Shown here in pieces: positions 1,386-50,536 of a DNA stretch of 64,000 nt. Each line of letters opens with the position of its first letter. Position 1 is the first letter of the stretch. The stretch is from Escherichia coli (GTDB lineage: Bacteria; Pseudomonadota; Gammaproteobacteria; Enterobacterales; Enterobacteriaceae), in assembly GCF_022846255.1 (NCBI RefSeq), contig NZ_AP025682.1, one strand, 5' to 3'. The position numbers were made by a program, and so were the translations under genes. The notes under the pieces are model-generated. The model was not told where the DNA came from, did not search any database, and was given only the letters and a program-made list of their open reading frames with translations.

Positions 1386-2447
1386 ATGCTCGAAATGTTG
1401 ATGCAATGGTATCGCCGCCGTTTTAGCGACCCGGAAGCGATTGCCTTGCTGGTTATTTTGGTTGCTGGTTTTGGCATTATCTTTTTCTTTAGCGGCCTAC
1501 TCGCGCCGTTGCTGGTGGCTATTGTGCTGGCCTATTTACTGGAATGGCCGACTGTCCGCCTGCAGTCTATTGGCTGTTCCCGCCCTTGGGCGACATCTAT
1601 CGTGCTGATCCTGTTTGTGGGCATCCTGCTACTGATGGCGTTCGTGGTACTGCCTATCGCCTGGCAGCAGGGCATCTACTTAATCCGCGATATGCCAGGG
1701 ATGCTTAATAAACTTTCTGATTTTGCTGCCACGTTACCGCGCCGGTATCCGGCATTAATGGATGCGGGGATTATTGATGCAATGGCTGAAAATATGCGTA
1801 GCCGGATGCTGACCATGGGCGATTCGGTGGTGAAAATTTCCCTCGCCTCGTTGGTCGGTTTGCTGACCATTGCCGTCTATCTGGTGCTGGTGCCATTGAT
1901 GGTCTTCTTCCTGCTGAAAGACAAAGAGCAGATGCTGAACGCCGTTCGCCGGGTGCTGCCGCGCAACCGTGGACTGGCAGGACAGGTGTGGAAGGAGATG
2001 AATCAACAAATCACCAACTATATCCGCGGCAAAGTGCTGGAGATGATCGTGGTAGGGATCGCCACCTGGCTGGGGTTCTTGCTCTTTGGGCTGAACTATT
2101 CGCTGCTGCTGGCGGTGCTGGTCGGCTTCTCGGTACTTATTCCGTACATTGGCGCATTTGTGGTGACCATTCCGGTGGTTGGCGTGGCGCTATTCCAGTT
2201 TGGTGCTGGCACGGAATTCTGGAGCTGCTTCGCGGTGTATCTGATTATTCAGGCGCTGGACGGCAACCTGTTAGTACCGGTGTTGTTTTCCGAAGCGGTT
2301 AACCTGCATCCTCTGGTGATTATTTTATCGGTGGTGATCTTCGGTGGTTTGTGGGGATTCTGGGGCGTATTCTTCGCTATTCCATTGGCGACGCTGATCA
2401 AAGCCGTGATTCACGCCTGGCCTGATGGGCAAATCGCGCAAGACTGA
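1386..2447 (+). CDS. perM: AI-2E/PerM-family inner membrane transporter (353 aa)
   Basis: ORF track 1386..2447; strongly hydrophobic multi-TM protein; divergent from bepA as in E. coli. Confidence 0.85.
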   Translation: MLEMLMQWYRRRFSDPEAIALLVILVAGFGIIFFFSGLLAPLLVAIVLAYLLEWPTVRLQSIGCSRPWATSIVLILFVGILLLMAFVVLPIAWQQGIYLIRDMPGMLNKLSDFAATLPRRYPALMDAGIIDAMAENMRSRMLTMGDSVVKISLASLVGLLTIAVYLVLVPLMVFFLLKDKEQMLNAVRRVLPRNRGLAGQVWKEMNQQITNYIRGKVLEMIVVGIATWLGFLLFGLNYSLLLAVLVGFSVLIPYIGAFVVTIPVVGVALFQFGAGTEFWSCFAVYLIIQALDGNLLVPVLFSEAVNLHPLVIILSVVIFGGLWGFWGVFFAIPLATLIKAVIHAWPDGQIAQD

Positions 2448-2545
2448 CCTTCAGCGAAAAAATTTGAAACGAGTGTTGCAGGGCAGTGAGACGATTTGAG
2501 ATGTGCTGGCCGCAAGCGCAGCCAGCACGGAATGGAGCAAAGTAA

Positions 2546-3016
2546 TCAGGCGTGTTCTTTCAGCCAGTTCAGCACAACGTCGTGGTGATTGCTGGTTTTG
2601 AAATCGTCAAAAACATGTTCGATTTTGCCATCAGCGTCAATCAGGAAGCTGATGCGATGAATACCATTGTAGGTTTTGCCCATGAAGGACTTTTCACCCC
2701 AGACGCCGAATTGTTCGCACACCTGGTGGTCCTCATCAGACAGGAGCGTAAAGTTAAGCAGCTCTTTTTCCGCAAAACGGGAGAGTTTTTCGGGTTTATC
2801 GGTGCTGATACCCAGCACATCAACGCCCGCTTTTTTCAACTCATCCATGTTATCGCGTAAGCCGCAGGCCTGTACGGTACAGCCGGGGGTCATGGCTTTC
2901 GGGTAGAAATAAACCAGAACACGCTGTCCCTGGAAGTCGGTCAAATTAACTTGTTCTCCGTCTTGATCCGGCAAGCTAAATTTCGGTGCGATATCACCGG
3001 CTTTCAGTGGATTCAT
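2546..3016 (-). CDS. bcp: thiol peroxidase Bcp (peroxiredoxin, 156 aa)
   Basis: ORF track; peroxidatic cysteine motif KAMTPGCTVQACG. Confidence 0.95.
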   Translation of the reverse strand: MNPLKAGDIAPKFSLPDQDGEQVNLTDFQGQRVLVYFYPKAMTPGCTVQACGLRDNMDELKKAGVDVLGISTDKPEKLSRFAEKELLNFTLLSDEDHQVCEQFGVWGEKSFMGKTYNGIHRISFLIDADGKIEHVFDDFKTSNHHDVVLNWLKEHA

Positions 3017-3588
3017 TACTTAACTCCATCCTGTTCATCATGTTGGGAATAATTGACGACGTTAATACTGCCTTGTGCATTGAGTTCTGTACATAGGGCT
3101 TTGAACGCTTGCTCAATATTTGCTGCGTCCGCAGATGCGGGGCTGTGGGCAGTAATTTGAATATGCAACTGCGCAGCCCGTTCATTTTCAGCAGGTTGCG
3201 TGCGTGACACCAGCTCCGCAATGTTCATATGATGCGCGTCGAAAAGTGCTGTGAAGCGTTCAATTAAATGCGGGGAGTCTGCCACATCGACCTGAACCCA
3301 GACAGATGCTGGCATTGGCGGACGCGGACGCGCCGTAGTGCGCTTCATCACGATTAAAAGATCCAGCTCGGCACCTTTCAACGGTAACGTTGATTCAATC
3401 AGAGTAATGGCATTCCATGAACCGGAAAGCAGCATGATAAACGTGAACTCTTCTCCCAGCATCGCCAGGCGACTGTCTTCAATATTACAGCCGCAACTAC
3501 TGACATGACGGGTGATGGTGTTCACAATTCCAGGGCGATCGGCACCCAACGCAGTGATCACCAGATAATGTTGCGATGACAGTGTCAA
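3016..3588 (-). CDS. gcvR: glycine cleavage system transcriptional repressor GcvR (190 aa)
   Basis: ORF-track frame 3016..3654; recognised protein begins MTLSSQHYLVITALGADRPGIV at a TTG codon; the upstream ATG at 3654 would add 22 residues. Confidence 0.85.
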   Translation of the reverse strand: MTLSSQHYLVITALGADRPGIVNTITRHVSSCGCNIEDSRLAMLGEEFTFIMLLSGSWNAITLIESTLPLKGAELDLLIVMKRTTARPRPPMPASVWVQVDVADSPHLIERFTALFDAHHMNIAELVSRTQPAENERAAQLHIQITAHSPASADAANIEQAFKALCTELNAQGSINVVNYSQHDEQDGVK

Positions 3589-6756: not shown

Positions 6757-7620
6757 ATGCGTTGGCAAGGGCGACGTGAAAGTGACAATGTTGAAGACAG
6801 GCGCAACAGCTCTGGTGGTCCGTCTATGGGCGGTCCCGGTTTTCGCCTGCCAAGCGGTAAAGGCGGGCTGATTTTACTGATAGTCGTGCTGGTTGCAGGC
6901 TACTATGGCGTTGATTTAACCGGGTTGATGACCGGACAGCCGGTTTCCCAACAGCAATCAACGCGGTCAATTAGCCCTAATGAAGACGAAGCCGCAAAAT
7001 TCACCTCGGTGATTCTGGCAACCACGGAAGACACCTGGGGACAGCAATTCGAGAAGATGGGTAAAACCTATCAGCAACCGAAGCTGGTCATGTACCGTGG
7101 AATGACGCGTACCGGCTGCGGGGCGGGCCAGTCCATAATGGGGCCATTCTATTGCCCGGCGGATGGCACAGTTTATATCGATCTCTCCTTCTATGATGAC
7201 ATGAAAGACAAACTTGGCGCGGATGGCGATTTTGCCCAGGGGTACGTTATCGCTCATGAAGTCGGTCATCATGTGCAGAAACTGTTAGGCATCGAGCCGA
7301 AAGTTCGTCAACTGCAACAAAACGCGACGCAGGCGGAAGTAAACCGCTTATCTGTGCGTATGGAACTCCAGGCCGACTGTTTTGCCGGTGTATGGGGGCA
7401 TAGTATGCAGCAGCAAGGTGTTCTGGAAACTGGCGATCTGGAAGAGGCGCTGAACGCGGCGCAGGCCATCGGCGATGACCGTTTACAACAGCAAAGTCAG
7501 GGGCGAGTAGTACCAGACAGTTTCACTCATGGCACTTCTCAGCAACGCTACAGCTGGTTTAAACGTGGTTTCGACAGCGGCGATCCGGCACAATGCAATA
7601 CTTTTGGTAAAAGCATTTAA
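6757..7620 (+). CDS. ypfJ: YpfJ, putative zinc metallopeptidase (287 aa)
   Basis: HEVGHH zinc-binding motif; N-terminal TM segment; position between purC and tmcA. Confidence 0.85.
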
Positions 7621-7634
7621 CTTCCGGGGCAGGG

Positions 7635-9650
7635 ATGGCTGAACTGACTGCGCTTCACACATTAACAGCGCAAATGAAACGTGAAGGGATCCGCCGCTTG
7701 CTGGTGTTGAGCGGGGAAGAGCGTTGGTGTTTTGATCATGCGCTTAAGTTGCGTGATGCCTTACCTGGCGACTGGCTGTGGATTTCGCCGCAGCCAGATG
7801 CTGAAAACCACTGTTCTCCCTCGGCACTACAAACTTTACTTGGGCGCGAGTTCCGGCATGCGGTATTCGACGCCCGCCACGGCTTTGATGCCGCTGCCTT
7901 TGCGGCACTTAGCGGAACGTTGAAAGCGGGAAGCTGGCTGGTGTTGTTACTCCCTGTATGGGATGAGTGGGAAAACCAACCTGATGCCGACTCGCTGCGC
8001 TGGAGTGATTGCCCTGACCCTATTGCGACGCCGCATTTTGTCCTGCACCTCAAACGTGTACTTACGGCGAATAACGACGCCATCCTCTGGCGGCAAAACC
8101 AGCCGTTCTCGTTGGCGCATTTTACTCCCCGTACTGACTGGCACTCCGCTACCGGCGCACCACAACCAGAACAACAGCAACTCTTACAGCAGCTACTGAC
8201 CATGCCGCCGGGCGTGGCAGCGGTAACTGCTGCGCGTGGGCGCGGTAAGTCGGCGTTGGCAGGGCAACTCATTTCTCGTATTGCGGGCAGTGCGATTGTC
8301 ACCGCGCCCGCAAAAGCGGCAACGGATGTACTGGCACAATTTGCGGGCGAGAAGTTTCGCTTTATTGCACCGGATGCCTTGTTAGCCAGCGATGAGCAAG
8401 CCGATTGGCTGGTGGTCGATGAAGCCGCAGCTATACCTGCGCCGTTGTTGCATCAACTGGTATCGCGTTTTCCTCGAACGTTGTTAACCACTACGGTGCA
8501 GGGCTACGAAGGCACCGGACGTGGTTTTTTGCTGAAATTTTGCGCTCGCTTTCCGCATTTACACCGTTTTGAACTACAACAGCCGATCCGTTGGGCGCAG
8601 GGATGCCCGCTGGAAAAAATGGTTAGTGAGGCACTGGTGTTTGACGATGAAAACTTCACCCATACACCACAAGGCAATATCGTTATTTCCGCATTTGAAC
8701 AGACGTTATGGCGAAGCGAGCCAGAAACGCCGTTAAAGGTTTATCAATTATTGTCTGGTGCGCACTACCGGACTTCGCCGCTGGATTTACGCCGCATGAT
8801 GGATGCACCAGGTCAACATTTTTTACAGGCGGCTGGCGAAAACGAGATTGCCGGAGCGCTGTGGCTGGTGGATGAGGGTGGATTATCTCAAGAACTCAGT
8901 CAGGCGGTATGGGCGGGTTATCGTCGTCCACGGGGCAATCTGGTGGCTCAATCGCTGGCGGCGCACGGCAGCAATCCACTGGCGGCGACATTGCGCGGAC
9001 GGCGGGTCAGCCGGATAGCAGTTCATCCGGCGCGTCAGCGGGAAGGCACAGGGCGGCAACTTATTGCTGGTGCTTTGCAATATACGCAGGACCTCGACTA
9101 TCTTTCGGTGAGTTTTGGTTACACCGGGGAATTATGGCGTTTCTGGCAACGCTGCGGTTTTGTGCTGGTGCGAATGGGTAATCATCGTGAAGCCAGCAGC
9201 GGTTGCTATACGGCGATGGCGCTGTTACCGATGAGTGATGCGGGTAAACAACTGGCTGAACGTGAGCATTACCGTTTACGTCGCGATGCGCAAGCTCTCG
9301 CGCAGTGGAATGGCGAAATGCTTCCTGTTGATCCACTAAACGATGCCGTCCTTTCTGACGACGACTGGCTTGAACTGGCCGGTTTTGCTTTCACTCATCG
9401 TCCGCTATTAACATCGTTAGGTTGCTTATTGCGTTTGCTACAAACCAGCGAACTGGCATTACCGGCGCTGCGTGGGCGTTTACAGAAAAACGCCAGTGAC
9501 GCGCAGTTATGTACCACACTTAAACTTTCAGGCCGTAAGCTGTTACTGGTTCGCCAGCGGGAAGAGGCCGCGCAGGCGCTATTCGCACTTGATGATGTTC
9601 GCACTGAGCGTCTGCGCGATCGCATAACGCAATGGCAATTTTTTCACTGA
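7635..9650 (+). CDS. tmcA: tRNA(Met) cytidine acetyltransferase TmcA (671 aa)
   Basis: ATPase/helicase-like region with GRGKS Walker A plus C-terminal acetyltransferase region; length matches TmcA. Confidence 0.9.
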   Translation: MAELTALHTLTAQMKREGIRRLLVLSGEERWCFDHALKLRDALPGDWLWISPQPDAENHCSPSALQTLLGREFRHAVFDARHGFDAAAFAALSGTLKAGSWLVLLLPVWDEWENQPDADSLRWSDCPDPIATPHFVLHLKRVLTANNDAILWRQNQPFSLAHFTPRTDWHSATGAPQPEQQQLLQQLLTMPPGVAAVTAARGRGKSALAGQLISRIAGSAIVTAPAKAATDVLAQFAGEKFRFIAPDALLASDEQADWLVVDEAAAIPAPLLHQLVSRFPRTLLTTTVQGYEGTGRGFLLKFCARFPHLHRFELQQPIRWAQGCPLEKMVSEALVFDDENFTHTPQGNIVISAFEQTLWRSEPETPLKVYQLLSGAHYRTSPLDLRRMMDAPGQHFLQAAGENEIAGALWLVDEGGLSQELSQAVWAGYRRPRGNLVAQSLAAHGSNPLAATLRGRRVSRIAVHPARQREGTGRQLIAGALQYTQDLDYLSVSFGYTGELWRFWQRCGFVLVRMGNHREASSGCYTAMALLPMSDAGKQLAEREHYRLRRDAQALAQWNGEMLPVDPLNDAVLSDDDWLELAGFAFTHRPLLTSLGCLLRLLQTSELALPALRGRLQKNASDAQLCTTLKLSGRKLLLVRQREEAAQALFALDDVRTERLRDRITQWQFFH

Positions 9651-17939: not shown

Positions 17940-19919
17940 ATGAATCGTTTTATTATGGCCAACAGTCAGCAATGTCTGGGTTGTCATGCTTGTGAAATCG
18001 CCTGTGTCATGGCTCACAATGACGAGCAACATGTCCTGAGCCAACACCATTTTCATCCCCGAATTACGGTTATCAAACATCAGCAGCAACGTAGTGCAGT
18101 GACCTGTCACCATTGTGAAGATGCGCCCTGCGCCCGTAGCTGCCCTAATGGCGCAATCAGCCACGTTGATGACAGCATTCAGGTCAATCAGCAAAAGTGT
18201 ATTGGCTGTAAATCCTGCGTGGTGGCCTGTCCATTTGGTACGATGCAAATCGTTCTGACACCCGTTGCGGTAGGAAAAGTAAAAGCCACGGCGCATAAAT
18301 GCGACCTTTGTGCAGGGCGCGAAAACGGTCCTGCCTGTGTCGAAAATTGCCCGGCGGACGCGCTGCAACTGGTCACTGACGCCGCACTCTCCGGCATGGC
18401 GAAATCCCGCCGCTTGCGCACCGCACGTCAGGAACAACAACCGTGGCATGCCAGTACCGCGGCGCAAGAAATGCCGGTAATGAGTAAAGTCGAGCAAATG
18501 CAGGCAACGCCCGCGCGTGGCGAGCCAGATAAACTGGCGATTGAAGCGCGCAAAACCGGTTTTGATGAAATTTATCTGCCATTCCGTGCCGATCAGGCAC
18601 AACGGGAAGCCTCGCGCTGCCTTAAGTGCGGCGAGCACAGCGTTTGTGAATGGACCTGCCCGCTGCATAACCATATACCGCAGTGGATTGAACTGGTGAA
18701 AGCCGGAAACATCGACGCCGCCGTCGAGCTTTCTCACCAGACCAACACCCTGCCGGAAATTACCGGACGCGTTTGCCCGCAAGACCGTTTGTGTGAAGGT
18801 GCCTGTACTATTCGCGATGAGCACGGCGCAGTAACTATCGGTAACATTGAACGCTACATTTCAGATCAGGCGTTGGCGAAAGGTTGGCGTCCTGACTTAA
18901 GCCATGTCACCAAAGTGGACAAGCGGGTGGCGATTATCGGTGCGGGTCCGGCAGGGCTGGCCTGTGCAGATGTTCTGACCCGCAATGGCGTGGCGGTGAC
19001 GGTGTACGATCGCCATCCAGAAATCGGTGGCTTGCTCACTTTCGGCATTCCTTCTTTCAAACTGGATAAATCCCTGCTGGCACGCCGTCGGGAAATCTTC
19101 AGCGCGATGGGGATTCACTTCGAACTCAATTGTGAAGTGGGTAAAGATGTTTCTTTGAATTCGCTTTTGGAACAATACGACGCGGTCTTCGTTGGCGTAG
19201 GCACTTACCGTTCCATGAAAGCGGGTTTACCCAATGAAGATGCGCCGGGCGTTTATGACGCGCTGCCGTTCCTCATCGCCAACACTAAACAGGTGATGGG
19301 ACTCGAAGAGCTACCGGAAGAGCCGTTTATCAATACCGCCGGACTTAACGTCGTGGTACTGGGCGGCGGCGACACCGCGATGGACTGTGTGCGTACCGCG
19401 CTGCGCCACGGCGCGAGTAATGTCACCTGCGCTTATCGTCGTGATGAAGCTAACATGCCAGGCTCGAAGAAAGAGGTGAAGAACGCCCGTGAAGAGGGGG
19501 CTAACTTCGAATTTAACGTCCAGCCGGTGGCGCTTGAGCTGAATGAACAAGGTCACGTCTGCGGGATTCGTTTCCTGCGCACGCGTCTTGGCGAGCCGGA
19601 TGCCCAGGGGCGTCGGCGTCCAGTGCCGGTGGAAGGCAGTGAATTTGTCATGCCAGCCGATGCGGTGATTATGGCGTTTGGCTTCAATCCGCACGGGATG
19701 CCGTGGCTGGAGTCGCACGGTGTAACGGTAGACAAATGGGGCCGCATCATCGCGGATGTGGAAAGCCAGTACCGTTACCAGACCACGAATCCGAAAATCT
19801 TCGCCGGTGGTGACGCCGTGCGTGGTGCGGATCTGGTGGTTACCGCAATGGCAGAAGGACGTCATGCGGCACAGGGGATCATTGACTGGCTGGGCGTAAA
19901 ATCAGTCAAATCTCACTGA
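17940..19919 (+). CDS. aegA: AegA, Fe-S cluster and FAD/NAD(P)-binding oxidoreductase (659 aa)
   Basis: N-terminal 4Fe-4S ferredoxin cysteine clusters (CxxCxxCxxxCP) followed by dinucleotide-binding motifs GAGPAG and GGGDTA. Confidence 0.9.
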   Translation: MNRFIMANSQQCLGCHACEIACVMAHNDEQHVLSQHHFHPRITVIKHQQQRSAVTCHHCEDAPCARSCPNGAISHVDDSIQVNQQKCIGCKSCVVACPFGTMQIVLTPVAVGKVKATAHKCDLCAGRENGPACVENCPADALQLVTDAALSGMAKSRRLRTARQEQQPWHASTAAQEMPVMSKVEQMQATPARGEPDKLAIEARKTGFDEIYLPFRADQAQREASRCLKCGEHSVCEWTCPLHNHIPQWIELVKAGNIDAAVELSHQTNTLPEITGRVCPQDRLCEGACTIRDEHGAVTIGNIERYISDQALAKGWRPDLSHVTKVDKRVAIIGAGPAGLACADVLTRNGVAVTVYDRHPEIGGLLTFGIPSFKLDKSLLARRREIFSAMGIHFELNCEVGKDVSLNSLLEQYDAVFVGVGTYRSMKAGLPNEDAPGVYDALPFLIANTKQVMGLEELPEEPFINTAGLNVVVLGGGDTAMDCVRTALRHGASNVTCAYRRDEANMPGSKKEVKNAREEGANFEFNVQPVALELNEQGHVCGIRFLRTRLGEPDAQGRRRPVPVEGSEFVMPADAVIMAFGFNPHGMPWLESHGVTVDKWGRIIADVESQYRYQTTNPKIFAGGDAVRGADLVVTAMAEGRHAAQGIIDWLGVKSVKSH

Positions 19920-31695: not shown

Positions 31696-33099
31696 ATGAA
31701 TCAACAGGATATTGAACAGGTGGTGAAAGCGGTACTGCTGAAAATGCAAAGCAGTGACACGCCGCCCGCCGCCGTTCATGAGATGGGCGTTTTCGCGTCC
31801 CTGGATGACGCCGTTGCGGCAGCCAAAGTCGCCCAGCAAGGGTTAAAAAGCGTGGCAATGCGCCAGTTAGCCATTGCTGCCATTCGTGAGGCAGGCGAAA
31901 AACACGCCAGAGATTTAGCGGAACTTGCCGTCAGTGAAACCGGCATGGGGCGCGTTGAAGATAAATTTGCCAAAAACGTCGCTCAGGCGCGCGGCACACC
32001 AGGCGTTGAGTGCCTCTCACCACAGGTGCTGACCGGTGACAACGGCCTGACCCTGATTGAAAACGCGCCCTGGGGCGTGGTGGCTTCGGTAACTCCGTCC
32101 ACCAACCCGGCGGCAACCGTAATTAATAACGCCATCAGCCTGATTGCCGCGGGCAACAGCGTCATTTTTGCCCCGCATCCGGCGGCGAAAAAAGTCTCCC
32201 AGCGGGCGATTACGCTGCTCAACCAGGCGATTGTTGCCGCAGGCGGGCCGGAAAACTTACTGGTTACTGTGGCCAATCCGGATATCGAAACCGCGCAACG
32301 TTTGTTCAAGTTCCCGGGTATCGGCCTGCTGGTGGTGACCGGCGGCGAAGCGGTAGTGGAAGCGGCGCGTAAACACACCAATAAACGTCTGATTGCCGCA
32401 GGCGCTGGCAACCCGCCGGTAGTTGTGGATGAAACCGCTGACCTCGCCCGTGCTGCTCAGTCCATCGTCAAAGGCGCGTCTTTCGATAACAACATCATTT
32501 GTGCCGACGAAAAGGTACTGATTGTTGTTGATAGCGTAGCCGATGAACTGATGCGTCTGATGGAAGGCCAGCATGCGGTGAAACTGACCGCAGAGCAGGC
32601 GCAGCAACTGCAATCGGTGTTGCTGAAAAATATCGACGAGTGCGGAAAAGGCACCGTCAGCCGTGACTGGGTTGGTCGCGATGCGGCGAAAATCGCGGCG
32701 GCAATCGGCCTTAAAGTTCCGGAACAAACGCGACTGCTGTTTGTAGAAACCTCCGCAGAACATCCGTTTGCTGTGACTGAACTGATGATGCCGGTGCTGC
32801 CCGTCGTGCGCGTCGCCAACGTGGCGGATGCCATTGCGCTGGCGGTGAAACTGGAAGGCGGTTGCCACCACACGGCGGCAATGCACTCGCGCAACATCGA
32901 AAACATGAACCAGATGGCGAACGCCATTGATACCAGCATTTTCGTTAAGAACGGACCGTGCATTGCCGGGCTGGGGCTGGGCGGGGAAGGCTGGACCACC
33001 ATGACCATCACCACGCCAACCGGTGAAGGGGTAACCAGCGCGCGGACGTTTGTCCGTCTGCGTCGCTGTGTATTAGTCGATGCGTTTCGCATTGTTTAA
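31696..33099 (+). CDS. eutE: EutE CoA-acylating acetaldehyde dehydrogenase (467 aa)
   Basis: ORF track; aldehyde dehydrogenase family; N-terminal encapsulation-peptide-like helix. Confidence 0.93.
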   Translation: MNQQDIEQVVKAVLLKMQSSDTPPAAVHEMGVFASLDDAVAAAKVAQQGLKSVAMRQLAIAAIREAGEKHARDLAELAVSETGMGRVEDKFAKNVAQARGTPGVECLSPQVLTGDNGLTLIENAPWGVVASVTPSTNPAATVINNAISLIAAGNSVIFAPHPAAKKVSQRAITLLNQAIVAAGGPENLLVTVANPDIETAQRLFKFPGIGLLVVTGGEAVVEAARKHTNKRLIAAGAGNPPVVVDETADLARAAQSIVKGASFDNNIICADEKVLIVVDSVADELMRLMEGQHAVKLTAEQAQQLQSVLLKNIDECGKGTVSRDWVGRDAAKIAAAIGLKVPEQTRLLFVETSAEHPFAVTELMMPVLPVVRVANVADAIALAVKLEGGCHHTAAMHSRNIENMNQMANAIDTSIFVKNGPCIAGLGLGGEGWTTMTITTPTGEGVTSARTFVRLRRCVLVDAFRIV

Positions 33100-33109
33100 G
33101 GAGTAACAG

Positions 33110-33946
33110 ATGGCGCACGACGAACAATGGCTCACCCCACGTCTGCAAACGGCGGCAACGCTGTGTAACCAGACGCCCGCCGCGACGGAATCTCCGCTGT
33201 GGCTGGGGGTGGATCTGGGCACCTGCGATGTGGTGTCGATGATTGTTGACTGCGACGGTCAGCCGGTGGCGGTATGCCTCGACTGGGCCGATGTGGTCCG
33301 CGACGGCATCGTCTGGGATTTCTTCGGTGCGGTCACCATTGTTCGTCGCCATCTCGACACCCTCGAGCAGCAATTCGGTCGCCGTTTTAGCCATGCGGCG
33401 ACCTCTTTTCCTCCAGGCACGGACCCGCGTATTTCCATCAACGTGCTGGAGTCTGCCGGACTGGAAGTGAGCCATGTGCTGGATGAGCCAACCGCAGTTG
33501 CGGATCTGCTGCAACTGGACAACGCCGGTGTAGTGGATATCGGCGGCGGCACTACCGGCATTGCCATCGTGAAAAAAGGCAAAGTGACGTACTCGGCGGA
33601 TGAAGCCACCGGCGGACATCACATCTCTCTGACTCTCGCCGGAAATCGTCGTATTTCGCTGGAAGAGGCAGAGCAGTACAAGCGCGGTCACGGTGAAGAG
33701 ATTTGGCCCGCGGTGAAACCGGTGTACGAAAAAATGGCGGACATTGTCGCCCGGCATATTGAAGGGCAGGGCATTACGGATTTATGGCTGGCGGGCGGCT
33801 CTTGTATGCAACCGGGCGTGGCGGAACTGTTTCGCAAACAATTCCCGGCGTTACAGGTGCATTTACCGCAGCACAGTTTGTTTATGACCCCGCTGGCGAT
33901 CGCCAGTAGCGGGCGAGAGAAAGCGGAGGGGCTATATGCAAAATGA
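33110..33946 (+). CDS. eutJ: EutJ actin/Hsp70-fold chaperone-like protein (278 aa)
   Basis: ORF track; DLGTCD and GGGTTG ATPase-fold motifs. Confidence 0.9.
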   Translation: MAHDEQWLTPRLQTAATLCNQTPAATESPLWLGVDLGTCDVVSMIVDCDGQPVAVCLDWADVVRDGIVWDFFGAVTIVRRHLDTLEQQFGRRFSHAATSFPPGTDPRISINVLESAGLEVSHVLDEPTAVADLLQLDNAGVVDIGGGTTGIAIVKKGKVTYSADEATGGHHISLTLAGNRRISLEEAEQYKRGHGEEIWPAVKPVYEKMADIVARHIEGQGITDLWLAGGSCMQPGVAELFRKQFPALQVHLPQHSLFMTPLAIASSGREKAEGLYAK

Positions 33947-35123
33947 ATTGCAGACCGCGCTCTTTCAGGCGTTCGATACCCTGAATCTGCAACGGGTAAA
34001 AACATTTAGCGTTCCACCGGTGACGCTTTGCGGTCCGGGCGCGGTGAGCAGTTGTGGGCAGCAAGCGCAAACGCGTGGGCTGAAACATCTGTTCGTGATG
34101 GCAGACAGCTTTTTGCATCAGACCGGGATGACCGCCGGGCTGACGCGTAGCCTGGCCGTTAAAGGTATCGCCATGACGCTCTGGCCATGTCCGGTGGGCG
34201 AACCATGCATCACCGACGTGTGTGCAGCCGTGGCGCAGTTGCGTGAATCAGGTTGTGACGGGGTGATCGCGTTTGGCGGCGGCTCGGTGCTGGATGCGGC
34301 GAAAGCCGTGGCGTTGCTGGTGACGAACCCGGATAGCACGCTGGCAGAAATGTCAGAAACCAGCGTTCTGCAACCGCGCCTGCCGTTGATTGCCATTCCA
34401 ACGACCGCCGGAACCGGCTCTGAAACGACTAACGTGACGGTGATTATCGATGCGGTAAGCGGGCGCAAACAGGTGTTAGCCCATGCCTCGCTGATGCCGG
34501 ATGTGGCGATCCTCGACGCCGCATTGACCGAAGGTGTGCCGTCGCATGTCACGGCGATGACTGGCATTGATGCGTTAACCCATGCCATTGAAGCGTACAG
34601 CGCGCTGAACGCCACACCGTTTACCGACAGTCTGGCGATTGGTGCCATTGCGATGATTGGCAAATCGCTGCCGAAAGCGGTGGGCTACGGTCATGACCTT
34701 GCCGCGCGCGAGAGCATGTTGCTGGCTTCATGTATGGCGGGAATGGCGTTTTCCAGTGCCGGACTTGGGTTGTGCCACGCGATGGCGCATCAGCCAGGGG
34801 CGGCGCTGCATATTCCGCACGGTCTGGCGAACGCCATGTTGTTGCCAACGGTGATGGAATTTAACCGGATGGTTTGTCGTGATCGGTTTAGTCAGATTGG
34901 TCGGGCGCTGCGAACTAAAAAATCCGACGATCGTGACGCTATTAACGCGGTAAGTGAGCTGATTGCGGAAGTCGGGATTGGTAAACGACTGGGCGATGTT
35001 GGTGCGACATCTGCGCATTACGGTGCATGGGCGCAGGCCGCGCTGGAAGATATTTGTCTGCGCAGTAACCCGCGTACCGCCAGCCTGGAGCAGATTATTG
35101 GTCTGTATGCTGCGGCGCTATAA
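33936..35123 (+). CDS. eutG: EutG iron-containing alcohol dehydrogenase (395 aa)
   Basis: ORF track; Fe-ADH family; overlaps eutJ by 11 bp. Confidence 0.92.
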   Translation: MQNELQTALFQAFDTLNLQRVKTFSVPPVTLCGPGAVSSCGQQAQTRGLKHLFVMADSFLHQTGMTAGLTRSLAVKGIAMTLWPCPVGEPCITDVCAAVAQLRESGCDGVIAFGGGSVLDAAKAVALLVTNPDSTLAEMSETSVLQPRLPLIAIPTTAGTGSETTNVTVIIDAVSGRKQVLAHASLMPDVAILDAALTEGVPSHVTAMTGIDALTHAIEAYSALNATPFTDSLAIGAIAMIGKSLPKAVGYGHDLAARESMLLASCMAGMAFSSAGLGLCHAMAHQPGAALHIPHGLANAMLLPTVMEFNRMVCRDRFSQIGRALRTKKSDDRDAINAVSELIAEVGIGKRLGDVGATSAHYGAWAQAALEDICLRSNPRTASLEQIIGLYAAAL

Positions 35124-35135
35124 AAGTGTACGGAC

Positions 35136-35240
35136 AGTCCCCTCGCCCCTTTGGGGAGAGGGTTAGGGTGAGGGGAACAGAGTCGCGCCGGTGCAAACAA
35201 TTACCCTCACCCCGGCCCCTCGGCTTCCAGAGTGAGGGAA
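35136..35240. repeat. GC-rich imperfect palindromic repeat in the eutG-eutH spacer
   Basis: cccctcgcccctttggggagaggg and gggtgagggg...ccctcacccc inverted repeats; family not assigned with confidence. Confidence 0.55.
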
Positions 35241-48568: not shown

Positions 48569-49465
48569 TTATTCCTTTTCCAGAGCCTTGCGAATAAAAC
48601 CGCCGTGTTGATCCAGGCATTTTTTAGCTTCATCGGCATCGAGATTTTTCAGTACCATCACAATGGCCGTTTTACAGTTGCGCTCGCAAGCAATTAACGC
48701 CGCTTCCGCTTGTTCGGCATTACATCCGGTAGCGTTTTTGACGATATTGACCTGGCGCACATGCAGTTTTTCGTTGGTGGCGACCACATCGACCATCAGG
48801 TTGCCGAACACTTTGCCGGATTTAATCATCAGCCCGGTGGAGAGCATGTTGAGCACCAGTTTCTGCGCCGTGCCTGCTTTCATTCGCGAAGAACCGGTAA
48901 CAACTTCGGCACCAACTACCGGCGTAATAGCAAACTCTGCGGTGGATGAAACGGCACTCCCCGGATTACAGGAAATGCCCACTGTACGGCAGCCGAGTTG
49001 GCGCGCGTATTCCAGCCCGGCAATCACATACGGCGTGCGTCCGCTGGCCGCAATACCAACCACCACATCCTGCGCGGTTAAGCCGATATTTTTCAGATCA
49101 TTAACACCACCTTCCCGGCTATCTTCTGCGCCTTCCACCGCGTGCTGAATGGCATATTCGCCGCCAGCAATCAAACCAACTACCAGGCCCGGTTTCACGC
49201 CGTAGGTCGGCGGACATTCGCTGGCATCCAGAATCCCCAGACGACCGGATGTTCCCGCACCGAGATAAATCAGACGGCCGCCGCCGCTTACCTGGGGGTG
49301 GATAACATCGATCGCCGCGGCGATATCCGGCAGTACGCGCTCAACGGCGAGTGGTACGGTTTTATCTTCATCGTTGATAATCCGGCACATTTCCAGCGTT
49401 GATACGCGGTCAATTTCAGCCGAGGCGGCGTTCGAGCCTTCGGTAATCATCTTTTCAAGTTGCAT
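48569..49465 (-). CDS. murQ: N-acetylmuramic acid 6-phosphate etherase MurQ (298 aa)
   Basis: ORF track; SIS-domain protein; 3 bp upstream of murP. Confidence 0.93.
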
Positions 49466-49744
49466 CGGTGGTGACCTTAATATTTGCGATCAAATAATTG
49501 CAGATAAATGGGATCATATATCCCGATTTGATAGACACAAAGGAATCATTAAGTCCGAATATTACTCATGTGATGTCACTGAAAATGATTGCGCGCTGAC
49601 GTAACGCTTGAGGTGCTGCATAAAGCAGCGACTAAATTGAGATTTTCCTGAATTAGTGAGCTGATCCGCAGCAATATTTTGTTTATCCTGTATTTTCAGA
49701 GGGAATGGAGTGTAACGCTCTGTATTAACAAGGAGAGCATTAAA

Positions 49745-50536
49745 ATGGGTAAACTCACGGGCAAGACAGCACTGATTACGGGCGCATTGCAGGGAATTGG
49801 CGAAGGAATTGCCAGAACTTTTGCGCGTCATGGCGCAAACCTAATCTTGCTGGATATCTCCCCTGAGATCGAAAAGCTGGCGGACGAACTGTGTGGCCGT
49901 GGTCATCGCTGTACGGCGGTTGTCGCCGATGTGCGTGACCCGGCGTCGGTAGCCGCAGCTATTAAGCGCGCTAAGGAAAAAGAAGGGCGCATTGATATTC
50001 TGGTGAATAACGCAGGCGTTTGTCGTCTGGGCAGTTTCCTTGATATGAGCGATGAAGATCGCGATTTCCATATTGATATCAATATAAAAGGCGTATGGAA
50101 CGTCACGAAGGCGGTGCTGCCGGAGATGATTGCCCGCAAAGATGGCCGGATTGTGATGATGTCTTCAGTCACTGGCGATATGGTGGCAGACCCGGGCGAA
50201 ACGGCGTACGCCTTAACGAAAGCGGCGATTGTTGGCCTGACTAAATCGCTGGCGGTGGAGTACGCGCAGTCTGGTATTCGCGTTAACGCCATCTGCCCTG
50301 GATACGTTCGCACGCCAATGGCGGAAAGCATTGCCCGCCAGTCGAACCCGGAAGATCCAGAATCGGTGCTGACTGAAATGGCGAAAGCAATCCCGATGCG
50401 TCGCCTCGCCGATCCGCTGGAAGTCGGCGAACTGGCGGCCTTCCTCGCATCGGATGAATCCAGCTATTTAACCGGTACACAGAATGTGATTGATGGCGGC
50501 AGCACACTGCCGGAGACGGTTAGCGTCGGCATCTGA
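49745..50536 (+). CDS. ucpA: short-chain dehydrogenase/reductase UcpA (263 aa)
   Basis: Start at MGKLTGKTALITGALQGIG (Rossmann motif) inside ORF-track ORF 49679..50536. Confidence 0.9.
   Translation: MGKLTGKTALITGALQGIGEGIARTFARHGANLILLDISPEIEKLADELCGRGHRCTAVVADVRDPASVAAAIKRAKEKEGRIDILVNNAGVCRLGSFLDMSDEDRDFHIDINIKGVWNVTKAVLPEMIARKDGRIVMMSSVTGDMVADPGETAYALTKAAIVGLTKSLAVEYAQSGIRVNAICPGYVRTPMAESIARQSNPEDPESVLTEMAKAIPMRRLADPLEVGELAAFLASDESSYLTGTQNVIDGGSTLPETVSVGI

Follow-up and report, generated by a model that had tools for sequence, protein, structure and literature searches.

In Escherichia coli K-12, murR forms a divergon with murQ-murP-yfeW, and its product MurR is a repressor that is relieved by MurNAc-6-phosphate (PMC5061867, PMC9177960). 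In the general scheme, MurR represses murQP and itself, MurNAc-6-phosphate is the inducer, CRP is involved, and yfeW is part of the operon (PMC9177960, PMC5061867, PMC3141248). In the window analysed here, which is a stretch of 64,000 nucleotides of E. coli DNA, murQ and murP lie close to ucpA, and a preliminary description had noticed no murR between them. The questions are whether the repressor gene is truly missing, how it was lost, and by what the murQP genes would be controlled without it. To our knowledge, all of the mechanistic knowledge on MurNAc catabolism in E. coli and its regulation by MurR, MurNAc-6-phosphate and CAP comes from K-12.

The murQ-ucpA locus and the absence of murR

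The murQ gene for the MurNAc-6-phosphate etherase is intact (48569..49465, minus strand, 298 aa), and its start codon is read as CAT on the plus strand at 49463-49465. MurQ is 96% identical to K-12 MurQ by tblastn and scored 510 bits against the NCBIfam equivalog TIGR00274, whose cut-off is 302. The gene for the MurNAc-specific PTS EIIBC component, murP, is adjacent and co-oriented with 3 bp in between (47141..48565, minus strand, intact, 474 aa). Its product showed 98.9% identity to K-12 MurP over residues 1-474 by tblastn, and 941 bits were obtained against the equivalog NF007152 (cut-off 516). On the other side lies ucpA, encoding an SDR oxidoreductase of 263 aa (49745-50536, plus strand, ATG at 49745), with cysPUWA downstream. 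UcpA is 99.6% identical to the K-12 protein (tblastn; 541 bits against NCBIfam NF006080, cut-off 356), and from 49648 to 49797 there are no differences between the window and K-12. The spacer between the divergent murQ and ucpA genes (49466-49744) is exactly 279 bp, as the preliminary description had estimated. Its statement that murR of about 285 codons lies between ucpA and murQ in K-12, divergent from murQ, agrees with the MG1655 layout. The gene order there is ucpA - murR - murQ - murP - yfeW - yfeX. The murR gene has 858 bp and codes for an RpiR-family protein with HTH and SIS domains, the gap between murQ and ucpA is 1149 bp, and the murR-murQ intergenic region is 163 bp.

Neither a MurR homologue nor an RpiR-like ORF was found in the window, which bears out the preliminary description. 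The best E value of K-12 MurR in tblastn over the whole 64 kb was 0.015. This weak match (19302-19505, 83 residues, 26% identity) falls inside an aegA-like oxidoreductase ORF at 17940-19919 and was rejected. Two ORFs that reach into the spacer, 49374-49604 on the plus strand and 49562-49831 on the minus strand, overlap murQ or ucpA in antisense and were not taken as genes. An Rfam search of 49300-49900 at E values up to 1 matched no structured RNA. A murR copy elsewhere in the genome, which had been considered at the outset, was sought by blastn with 11-base words in 5426 complete E. coli genomes. Of these, 1047 had no match, on chromosomes and plasmids alike. The scope of this result is the 1047 murR-less complete genomes, and the window's own genome is represented by the 64 kb. 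Therefore, the earlier inference that the operon is without its specific repressor stands, because murR is missing and no second copy was found.

The two remaining genes are under purifying selection. The dN/dS values of the window against murR-positive genomes are 0.05-0.08 for murQ and 0.02-0.03 for murP, and they are indistinguishable from the values among murR-positive genomes themselves. The PGAP annotation also gives murP as intact in ATCC 11775, CFT073, and LF82. The third gene of the K-12 murQ operon, yfeW (pbp4B), is a stub in the window (47024..47138, minus strand): tblastn and alignment recovered codons 1-29 together with the 11 final codons. The annotations of ATCC 11775, CFT073, and LF82 likewise list the gene as a partial pseudogene. 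As a separate observation, full-length yfeW is present in 4148 of the 5426 complete E. coli genomes, and at least 231 murR-positive genomes are without it.

Structure, distribution and origin of the deletion

Pairwise and three-way alignments showed that about 862 bp of K-12 sequence is missing from the window. Homology with K-12 stops at 49555 and starts again at about 49564, so that the junction lies at 49555..49556 and the missing part corresponds to about 6822-7683 of the K-12 locus (L001). The deleted segment consists of murR codons 1 to about 263 plus 73 bp from the distal side of the murR-murQ intergenic region, where the CAP site lies. The 90 bp proximal to murQ are retained (49466..49555, minus strand) and colinear with positions 7684-7773 of the K-12 locus. 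They contain the Shine-Dalgarno sequence, a candidate murQ -10 element and two conserved boxes. About 11% of their sites differ from K-12, and only four clustered sites differ from Escherichia albertii. The junction is filled by the 8-bp sequence CGAATATT (49556..49563), which has no clear K-12 homologue on either side. It is followed by a 53-bp stub of the murR 3' end (49564..49616, plus strand), assigned by alignment and a site table to codons about 264-285 and the stop codon. This stub carries an additional 10-bp deletion and about 15% lineage-specific substitutions, and it is too diverged for detection by blastn with murR. The rest of the spacer (49617..49744, plus strand) aligns to K-12 as the former murR-ucpA spacer and is now the upstream region of ucpA. 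Thus, one old deletion of about 0.86 kb joined the proximal 90 bp of the murQP control region to a decaying murR stub.

Two routes to this junction were considered and rejected. Within the control region of K-12 only one repeat was seen, a direct 8-mer, ATGATTCC, in two copies with 32 bp spacing, and no such repeat is present in the window spacer. The junction is also not a hybrid of box 1 and its look-alike AACTCAATGATG in the murR 3' end, because the allele keeps both copies.

The polarity of the change was determined with MurQ as the query and one genome per species. The murR gene adjoins murQ in three cryptic Escherichia lineages (MOD1-EC7003, E. whittamii, and E1V33), in a divergent species representative labelled E. 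coli, in Citrobacter, and in Vibrio. In Salmonella arizonae and a third Citrobacter it is likewise beside murQ, and the two are separated by an insertion. Since murR is kept beside murQ in the relatives, its presence is the ancestral state and a later deletion produced the gap. The leftover stub is consistent with this polarity.

Some of these relatives carry variants of their own. In Salmonella enterica subsp. arizonae (L010, 2084-4000) the distance from murR to murQ is about 1.9 kb, and a Citrobacter sp. (L016) has the same spacing. In L010 the space in between holds a 361-aa porin-like ORF (2286-3371) and a second ORF of 259 aa, whose start resembles a signal peptide. They may serve the MurNAc locus as an outer-membrane component for uptake. 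'E. coli SCPM-O-B-8794' (L009, 4901-6321) has murR, a murP frameshifted near codon 181 and no yfeW. A metagenome-assembled genome labelled Citrobacter (L004) is E. coli-like, with murR present and a MurQ 99% identical to that of the window.

The preliminary description had treated the loss as a peculiarity of one genome, and this proved wrong. A 451-bp probe spanning the junction, for which a contiguous match was required, found the identical junction in 1046 of the 5426 complete E. coli genomes, each time with at least 99% identity. K-12 murR was detected in 4379 genomes, the same ones by megablast and by blastn with 11-base words. The murR-positive and junction-positive sets are complementary, and all but one of the 1047 murR-less genomes have the window's junction. 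The carriers include CFT073, Nissle 1917, LF82, NRG 857C, ATCC 25922, and the type strain ATCC 11775, which are regarded as phylogroup B2 strains. The 279-bp spacer of ATCC 11775 is identical to that of the window, and one base is different in CFT073. The murR-less allele is therefore fixed in a major E. coli lineage. One murR-positive strain stands apart in another respect: murR of HH45 (NZ_CP116411.1, 1408400-1409226) is only 78.7% identical to K-12, while the species range is 93-100%, and this murR is probably an imported allele.

The same allele is found outside the species. The E. albertii type strain is also without murR, and its junction, GGAATCATTAAGTC followed by CGAATA, is the same to the base. 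Six further E. albertii assemblies have it as well (seven in all). The filler at this place in E. albertii is CGAATACC, and the non-templated CGAATA is common to E. albertii and the window. Nine derived SNPs in 49431-49561 are common to B2 and E. albertii only and occur in no murR-positive sequence. This tract runs from the 35 bp that open murQ through the retained 90 bp to the junction. Within it, B2 and E. albertii differ at 4 of 131 sites (3.1%), whereas the flanks differ by 10.4% in the murQ coding region and by 17.6% to the right of the junction (Fisher p = 9e-4 versus the tract). The murQ dS is 0.45 between B2 and E. albertii and 0.47 between K-12 and E. albertii. Outside the tract, each genome resembles its own species. 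The same breakpoint, the same filler and the nine shared derived SNPs indicate a single origin of the allele. The stub is heavily and independently decayed in both lineages, and therefore the deletion is old. Either homologous recombination of a short tract passed the allele between the species, or the polymorphism is old and its left side was homogenised at a later time. The rest of the locus has a different state in E. albertii (L030/L031, 3901-6470). There, murQ is intact, but an IS1 splits murP near codon 53, a frameshift follows near codon 401, and yfeW is left as two fragments only; the draft assemblies break at the IS1.

Two other accounts of the gap were weighed against this history. 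An assembly or sequencing artefact, or a rearrangement that moved murR elsewhere in this genome, deserves next to no credence, and nothing was found that speaks for it. The same junction is present in 1046 independent complete genomes and in seven E. albertii assemblies, so neither chance nor misassembly can explain it, and the murR-positive count complements the junction-positive count. Separate losses of murR in B2 E. coli and E. albertii by two parallel deletions would agree with the ordinary species-level divergence of both flanks, including the murQ dS of 0.45, and with a stub that differs between the two by about 18-23% plus a 10-bp indel. On the other hand, two independent events would have to reach a breakpoint identical to the base with the same non-templated CGAATA and with nine derived SNPs in common over the 131 bp alongside, and no direct repeat flanks the deleted segment to drive recurrence. 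Parallel deletion is thus very improbable, and the single old deletion is retained in what follows.

The remaining control region

The murR-murQ intergenic regions of murR-positive E. coli, cryptic clades and Citrobacter (eight sequences) were aligned, and three conserved blocks appeared, namely a CRP-type site, box 1 and box 2. The CRP-type site has the form T(T/A)TGA-N6-TCACA. In K-12 it reads TATGACGCTCTTCACA, with one mismatch to the consensus, and lies at -119..-104 from the murQ ATG. Its centre is about 71 bp upstream of the start expected from a -10 hexamer TATGAT. Jaeger and Mayer (2008) reportedly described a class I CAP site, face-to-face and non-overlapping murQ and murR promoters, and binding of MurR to two adjacent inverted repeats. 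The geometry of the control region in murR-positive genomes would fit this description. The native CAP site lies within the deleted segment. The preliminary description had expected murQP to be constitutive or dependent on CRP only. The part that concerns the lost repressor holds, and CRP dependence cannot be assumed because the deletion took the conserved CAP site with it.

The other two blocks are mostly retained. Box 1 is a 13-bp quasi-palindrome, GAnTCAnTGAnTC, at 49543..49555 on the minus strand (-90..-78). It reads GACTCAATGATTC in all murR-positive species and GACTTAATGATTC in the window, and E. albertii has the same C-to-T change. From its sequence and conservation, box 1 is probably a MurR operator. 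Box 2, around -57..-45, is ATATATGATTCCA in eight of eight murR-positive sequences from E. coli to Citrobacter and ATATATGATCCCA in the window. Each box thus carries one substitution at a position that is invariant in the murR-positive species, and both substitutions are shared by E. albertii. This pattern would fit a relaxed constraint on the operators. The hexamer TATGAT inside box 2 (49513..49518, minus strand, -53..-48 from the ATG) is a candidate murQ -10 element, as judged from the sequence and the geometry reportedly described by Jaeger and Mayer. The candidate -35 element changes from TTAAGC in K-12 to TTGTGT in the window. The promoter scan at its threshold did not call the murQ promoter in K-12 or in the window, and the two promoters were compared in strength by hexamer counting only. 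It was also observed that the T-to-C change in box 2 turns the region of the candidate -10 (49510-49524, minus strand) into a perfect inverted repeat with 5-bp arms, GGGAT-ATATG-ATCCC. A terminator scan flagged this repeat, though it is upstream of the expected murQ start.

A promoter-like site facing the other way, GTGACC-16-AATAAT, was called by the promoter scan at 49471..49498 on the plus strand and is the former candidate promoter of murR. It is a consensus match only, of a kind expected 0.9 times by chance in the region. K-12 has the same site at the corresponding position (7768-7741), beside the ribosome-binding region of murQ. In the window, the orphaned site faces ucpA across the junction at about 250 bp, and it could change ucpA expression in murR-less strains.

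The stub itself provides a CRP-like 16-mer, TGTGATGTCACTGAAA (49569..49584), with two mismatches to TGTGA-N6-TCACA. It lies at -119..-104 from the murQ ATG, which is the exact register of the K-12 CAP site. This was a post hoc observation, and a site as good occurs anywhere in 11% of shuffled 279-base trials, or at about 5e-4 per position. Its promoter-proximal half is perfect through a B2-specific G-to-A change; K-12 and E. albertii read TGTGG. The E. albertii sequence has three mismatches, with CCACA for TCACA, and the case for a functional site is weaker because it is not conserved there. At gal, ara, and malT, natural CRP sites are known in which one half-site is good and the other is poor. 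CRP input through TGTGATGTCACTGAAA is possible.

Probable consequences for murQP expression, and sequence diversity around the locus

The locus has much in common with the K-12 divergon. The chromosomal position between yfeX and ucpA-cysP is the same, murQ and murP are orthologous (96% and 99% amino acid identity), and the same proximal 90 bp lie upstream of murQ. In contrast, the window has no murR and only a yfeW stub. Its native CAP site is gone, with a CRP-like stub sequence of two mismatches in its register, each conserved box has one substitution, and the candidate -35 is altered. The closest laboratory counterpart is an engineered murR deletion of K-12, in which the lag on MurNAc is lost and growth is faster (PMC9177960). 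The missing repressor is common to both. However, the laboratory deletions keep the whole intergenic region with the CAP site and the natural allele does not, and therefore their phenotype is not simply transferable. Jaeger and Mayer (2008) reportedly saw about 20-fold higher murQ transcription in such a deletion strain, and the natural allele may be weaker than one that keeps the CAP site. The allele also resembles the loss of local repressors in natural E. coli and Shigella, where a transcription factor is lost and its targets are kept under purifying selection. It is unlike that pattern in that the same event removes an activator site and appears to re-create one, and in that the allele crosses a species boundary.

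Taken together, we consider it likely that a single old deletion, carried by a fixed allele shared with E. albertii, left murQP with MurNAc-independent and possibly catabolite-controlled expression. Without MurR, the operon would be neither repressed nor induced through MurNAc-6-phosphate. The murQP genes would be transcribed from the retained core promoter with the -10 element TATGAT, which would set the level. Input from cAMP-CRP may persist via the CRP-like site of the stub, which has the register of the lost CAP site. Overall, one would expect expression that does not depend on MurNAc and may still be under catabolite control. Such an output would suffice to recycle peptidoglycan and to use MurNAc at once, with no lag of the K-12 kind. 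Alternatively, murQP might be expressed only poorly now that the CAP site is gone. The open-access full-text literature yielded no paper on murR loss in B2 or E. albertii or on murQ expression in such strains, and no expression data for any murR-less strain.

The main rival to MurNAc-independent expression is a decaying locus in which only murQ matters. The losses of murR, the CAP site and yfeW would then be steps of decay, and murQ alone would be kept at a low, unregulated level for recycling of anhydro-MurNAc. The yfeW stub agrees with this, as does the deletion of the native CAP site, which is reportedly needed for K-12 murQ transcription. So does E. albertii, in which the same allele is combined with an IS1-cut and frameshifted murP, a fragmented yfeW and an intact murQ. 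However, murP is full length in the window and in the B2 references with a dN/dS of 0.02-0.03, and the deletion is old, with a stub diverged by about 15%, yet murP of E. coli has not decayed. Decay is thus regarded as unlikely. Control by another regulator, either a paralogous protein of the RpiR/SIS family or NagC, would restore a response of murQP to MurNAc-6-phosphate. Both conserved boxes are mostly retained with one substitution each, and other RpiR-family proteins are encoded by E. coli. Such a take-over is nevertheless distinctly improbable, since no murR-like DNA was found in the 1047 genomes at blastn sensitivity and no RpiR-like ORF in the window, while the literature searched gives no support for cross-regulation by a paralogue. 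The box substitutions at otherwise invariant positions, the same in both murR-less lineages, also look more like relaxed operator constraint. A further step beyond the favoured reading is that the deletion was an adaptive rewiring in one event, which removed the repressor, set a CRP half-site in the CAP register and made murQP purely catabolite-controlled, after which the tract of about 130 bp spread as advantageous. We hold this to be possible, if doubtful. If it were true, the change from TGTGG to TGTGA in B2 would be a later improvement of the CRP site, murQP would need no inducer, and a co-adapted promoter and junction would have spread between E. albertii and the B2 ancestor. The orphaned murR promoter could then drive ucpA as a side effect.

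The interest of this deletion is moderate, and it opens no long-standing question. The difference in murR content is visible in any public annotation, and changes of this kind, in which a local repressor is lost, are familiar. The interest lies in the joint loss of repressor and activator site, the latter of which the same event may have restored, in the crossing of species and in the K-12 model of regulation. This model cannot apply to about 19% of the complete E. coli genomes, because they have neither the repressor gene nor the mapped activator site. The affected fifth or so of the species is medically important and includes the extraintestinal pathogen references CFT073, a uropathogen, and ATCC 25922, the probiotic Nissle 1917, the Crohn's-associated LF82, and the type strain of the species. 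Peptidoglycan recycling influences the release of muropeptides to the host and stationary-phase survival. A lineage-wide change in the control of recycling is thus a cheap and directly testable hypothesis for B2 physiology, and the allele is a clean, small example of a regulatory deletion common to two species.

The surroundings of the locus are heterogeneous among strains. Over 24 kb, from 30 to 54 kb, the best matches of the window are LF82, NRG 857C, Nissle 1917, CFT073, and ATCC 25922, and no complete E. coli genome is above 99% to the window in this interval. The eut operon (32000-39000) is 96-97% identical to LF82, and the remainder of the interval is 99-100% identical. Genomes of the CFT073 and Nissle type have about 8.3 kb extra within it. 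In the 3' two thirds of murQ (48569-49162), 8.1% of nucleotides differ between B2 and K-12, compared with 3.0% in ucpA, and the dS of murQ is 0.24. The strains also show mosaic patterns, which are suggestive of frequent recombination at the murQ locus.
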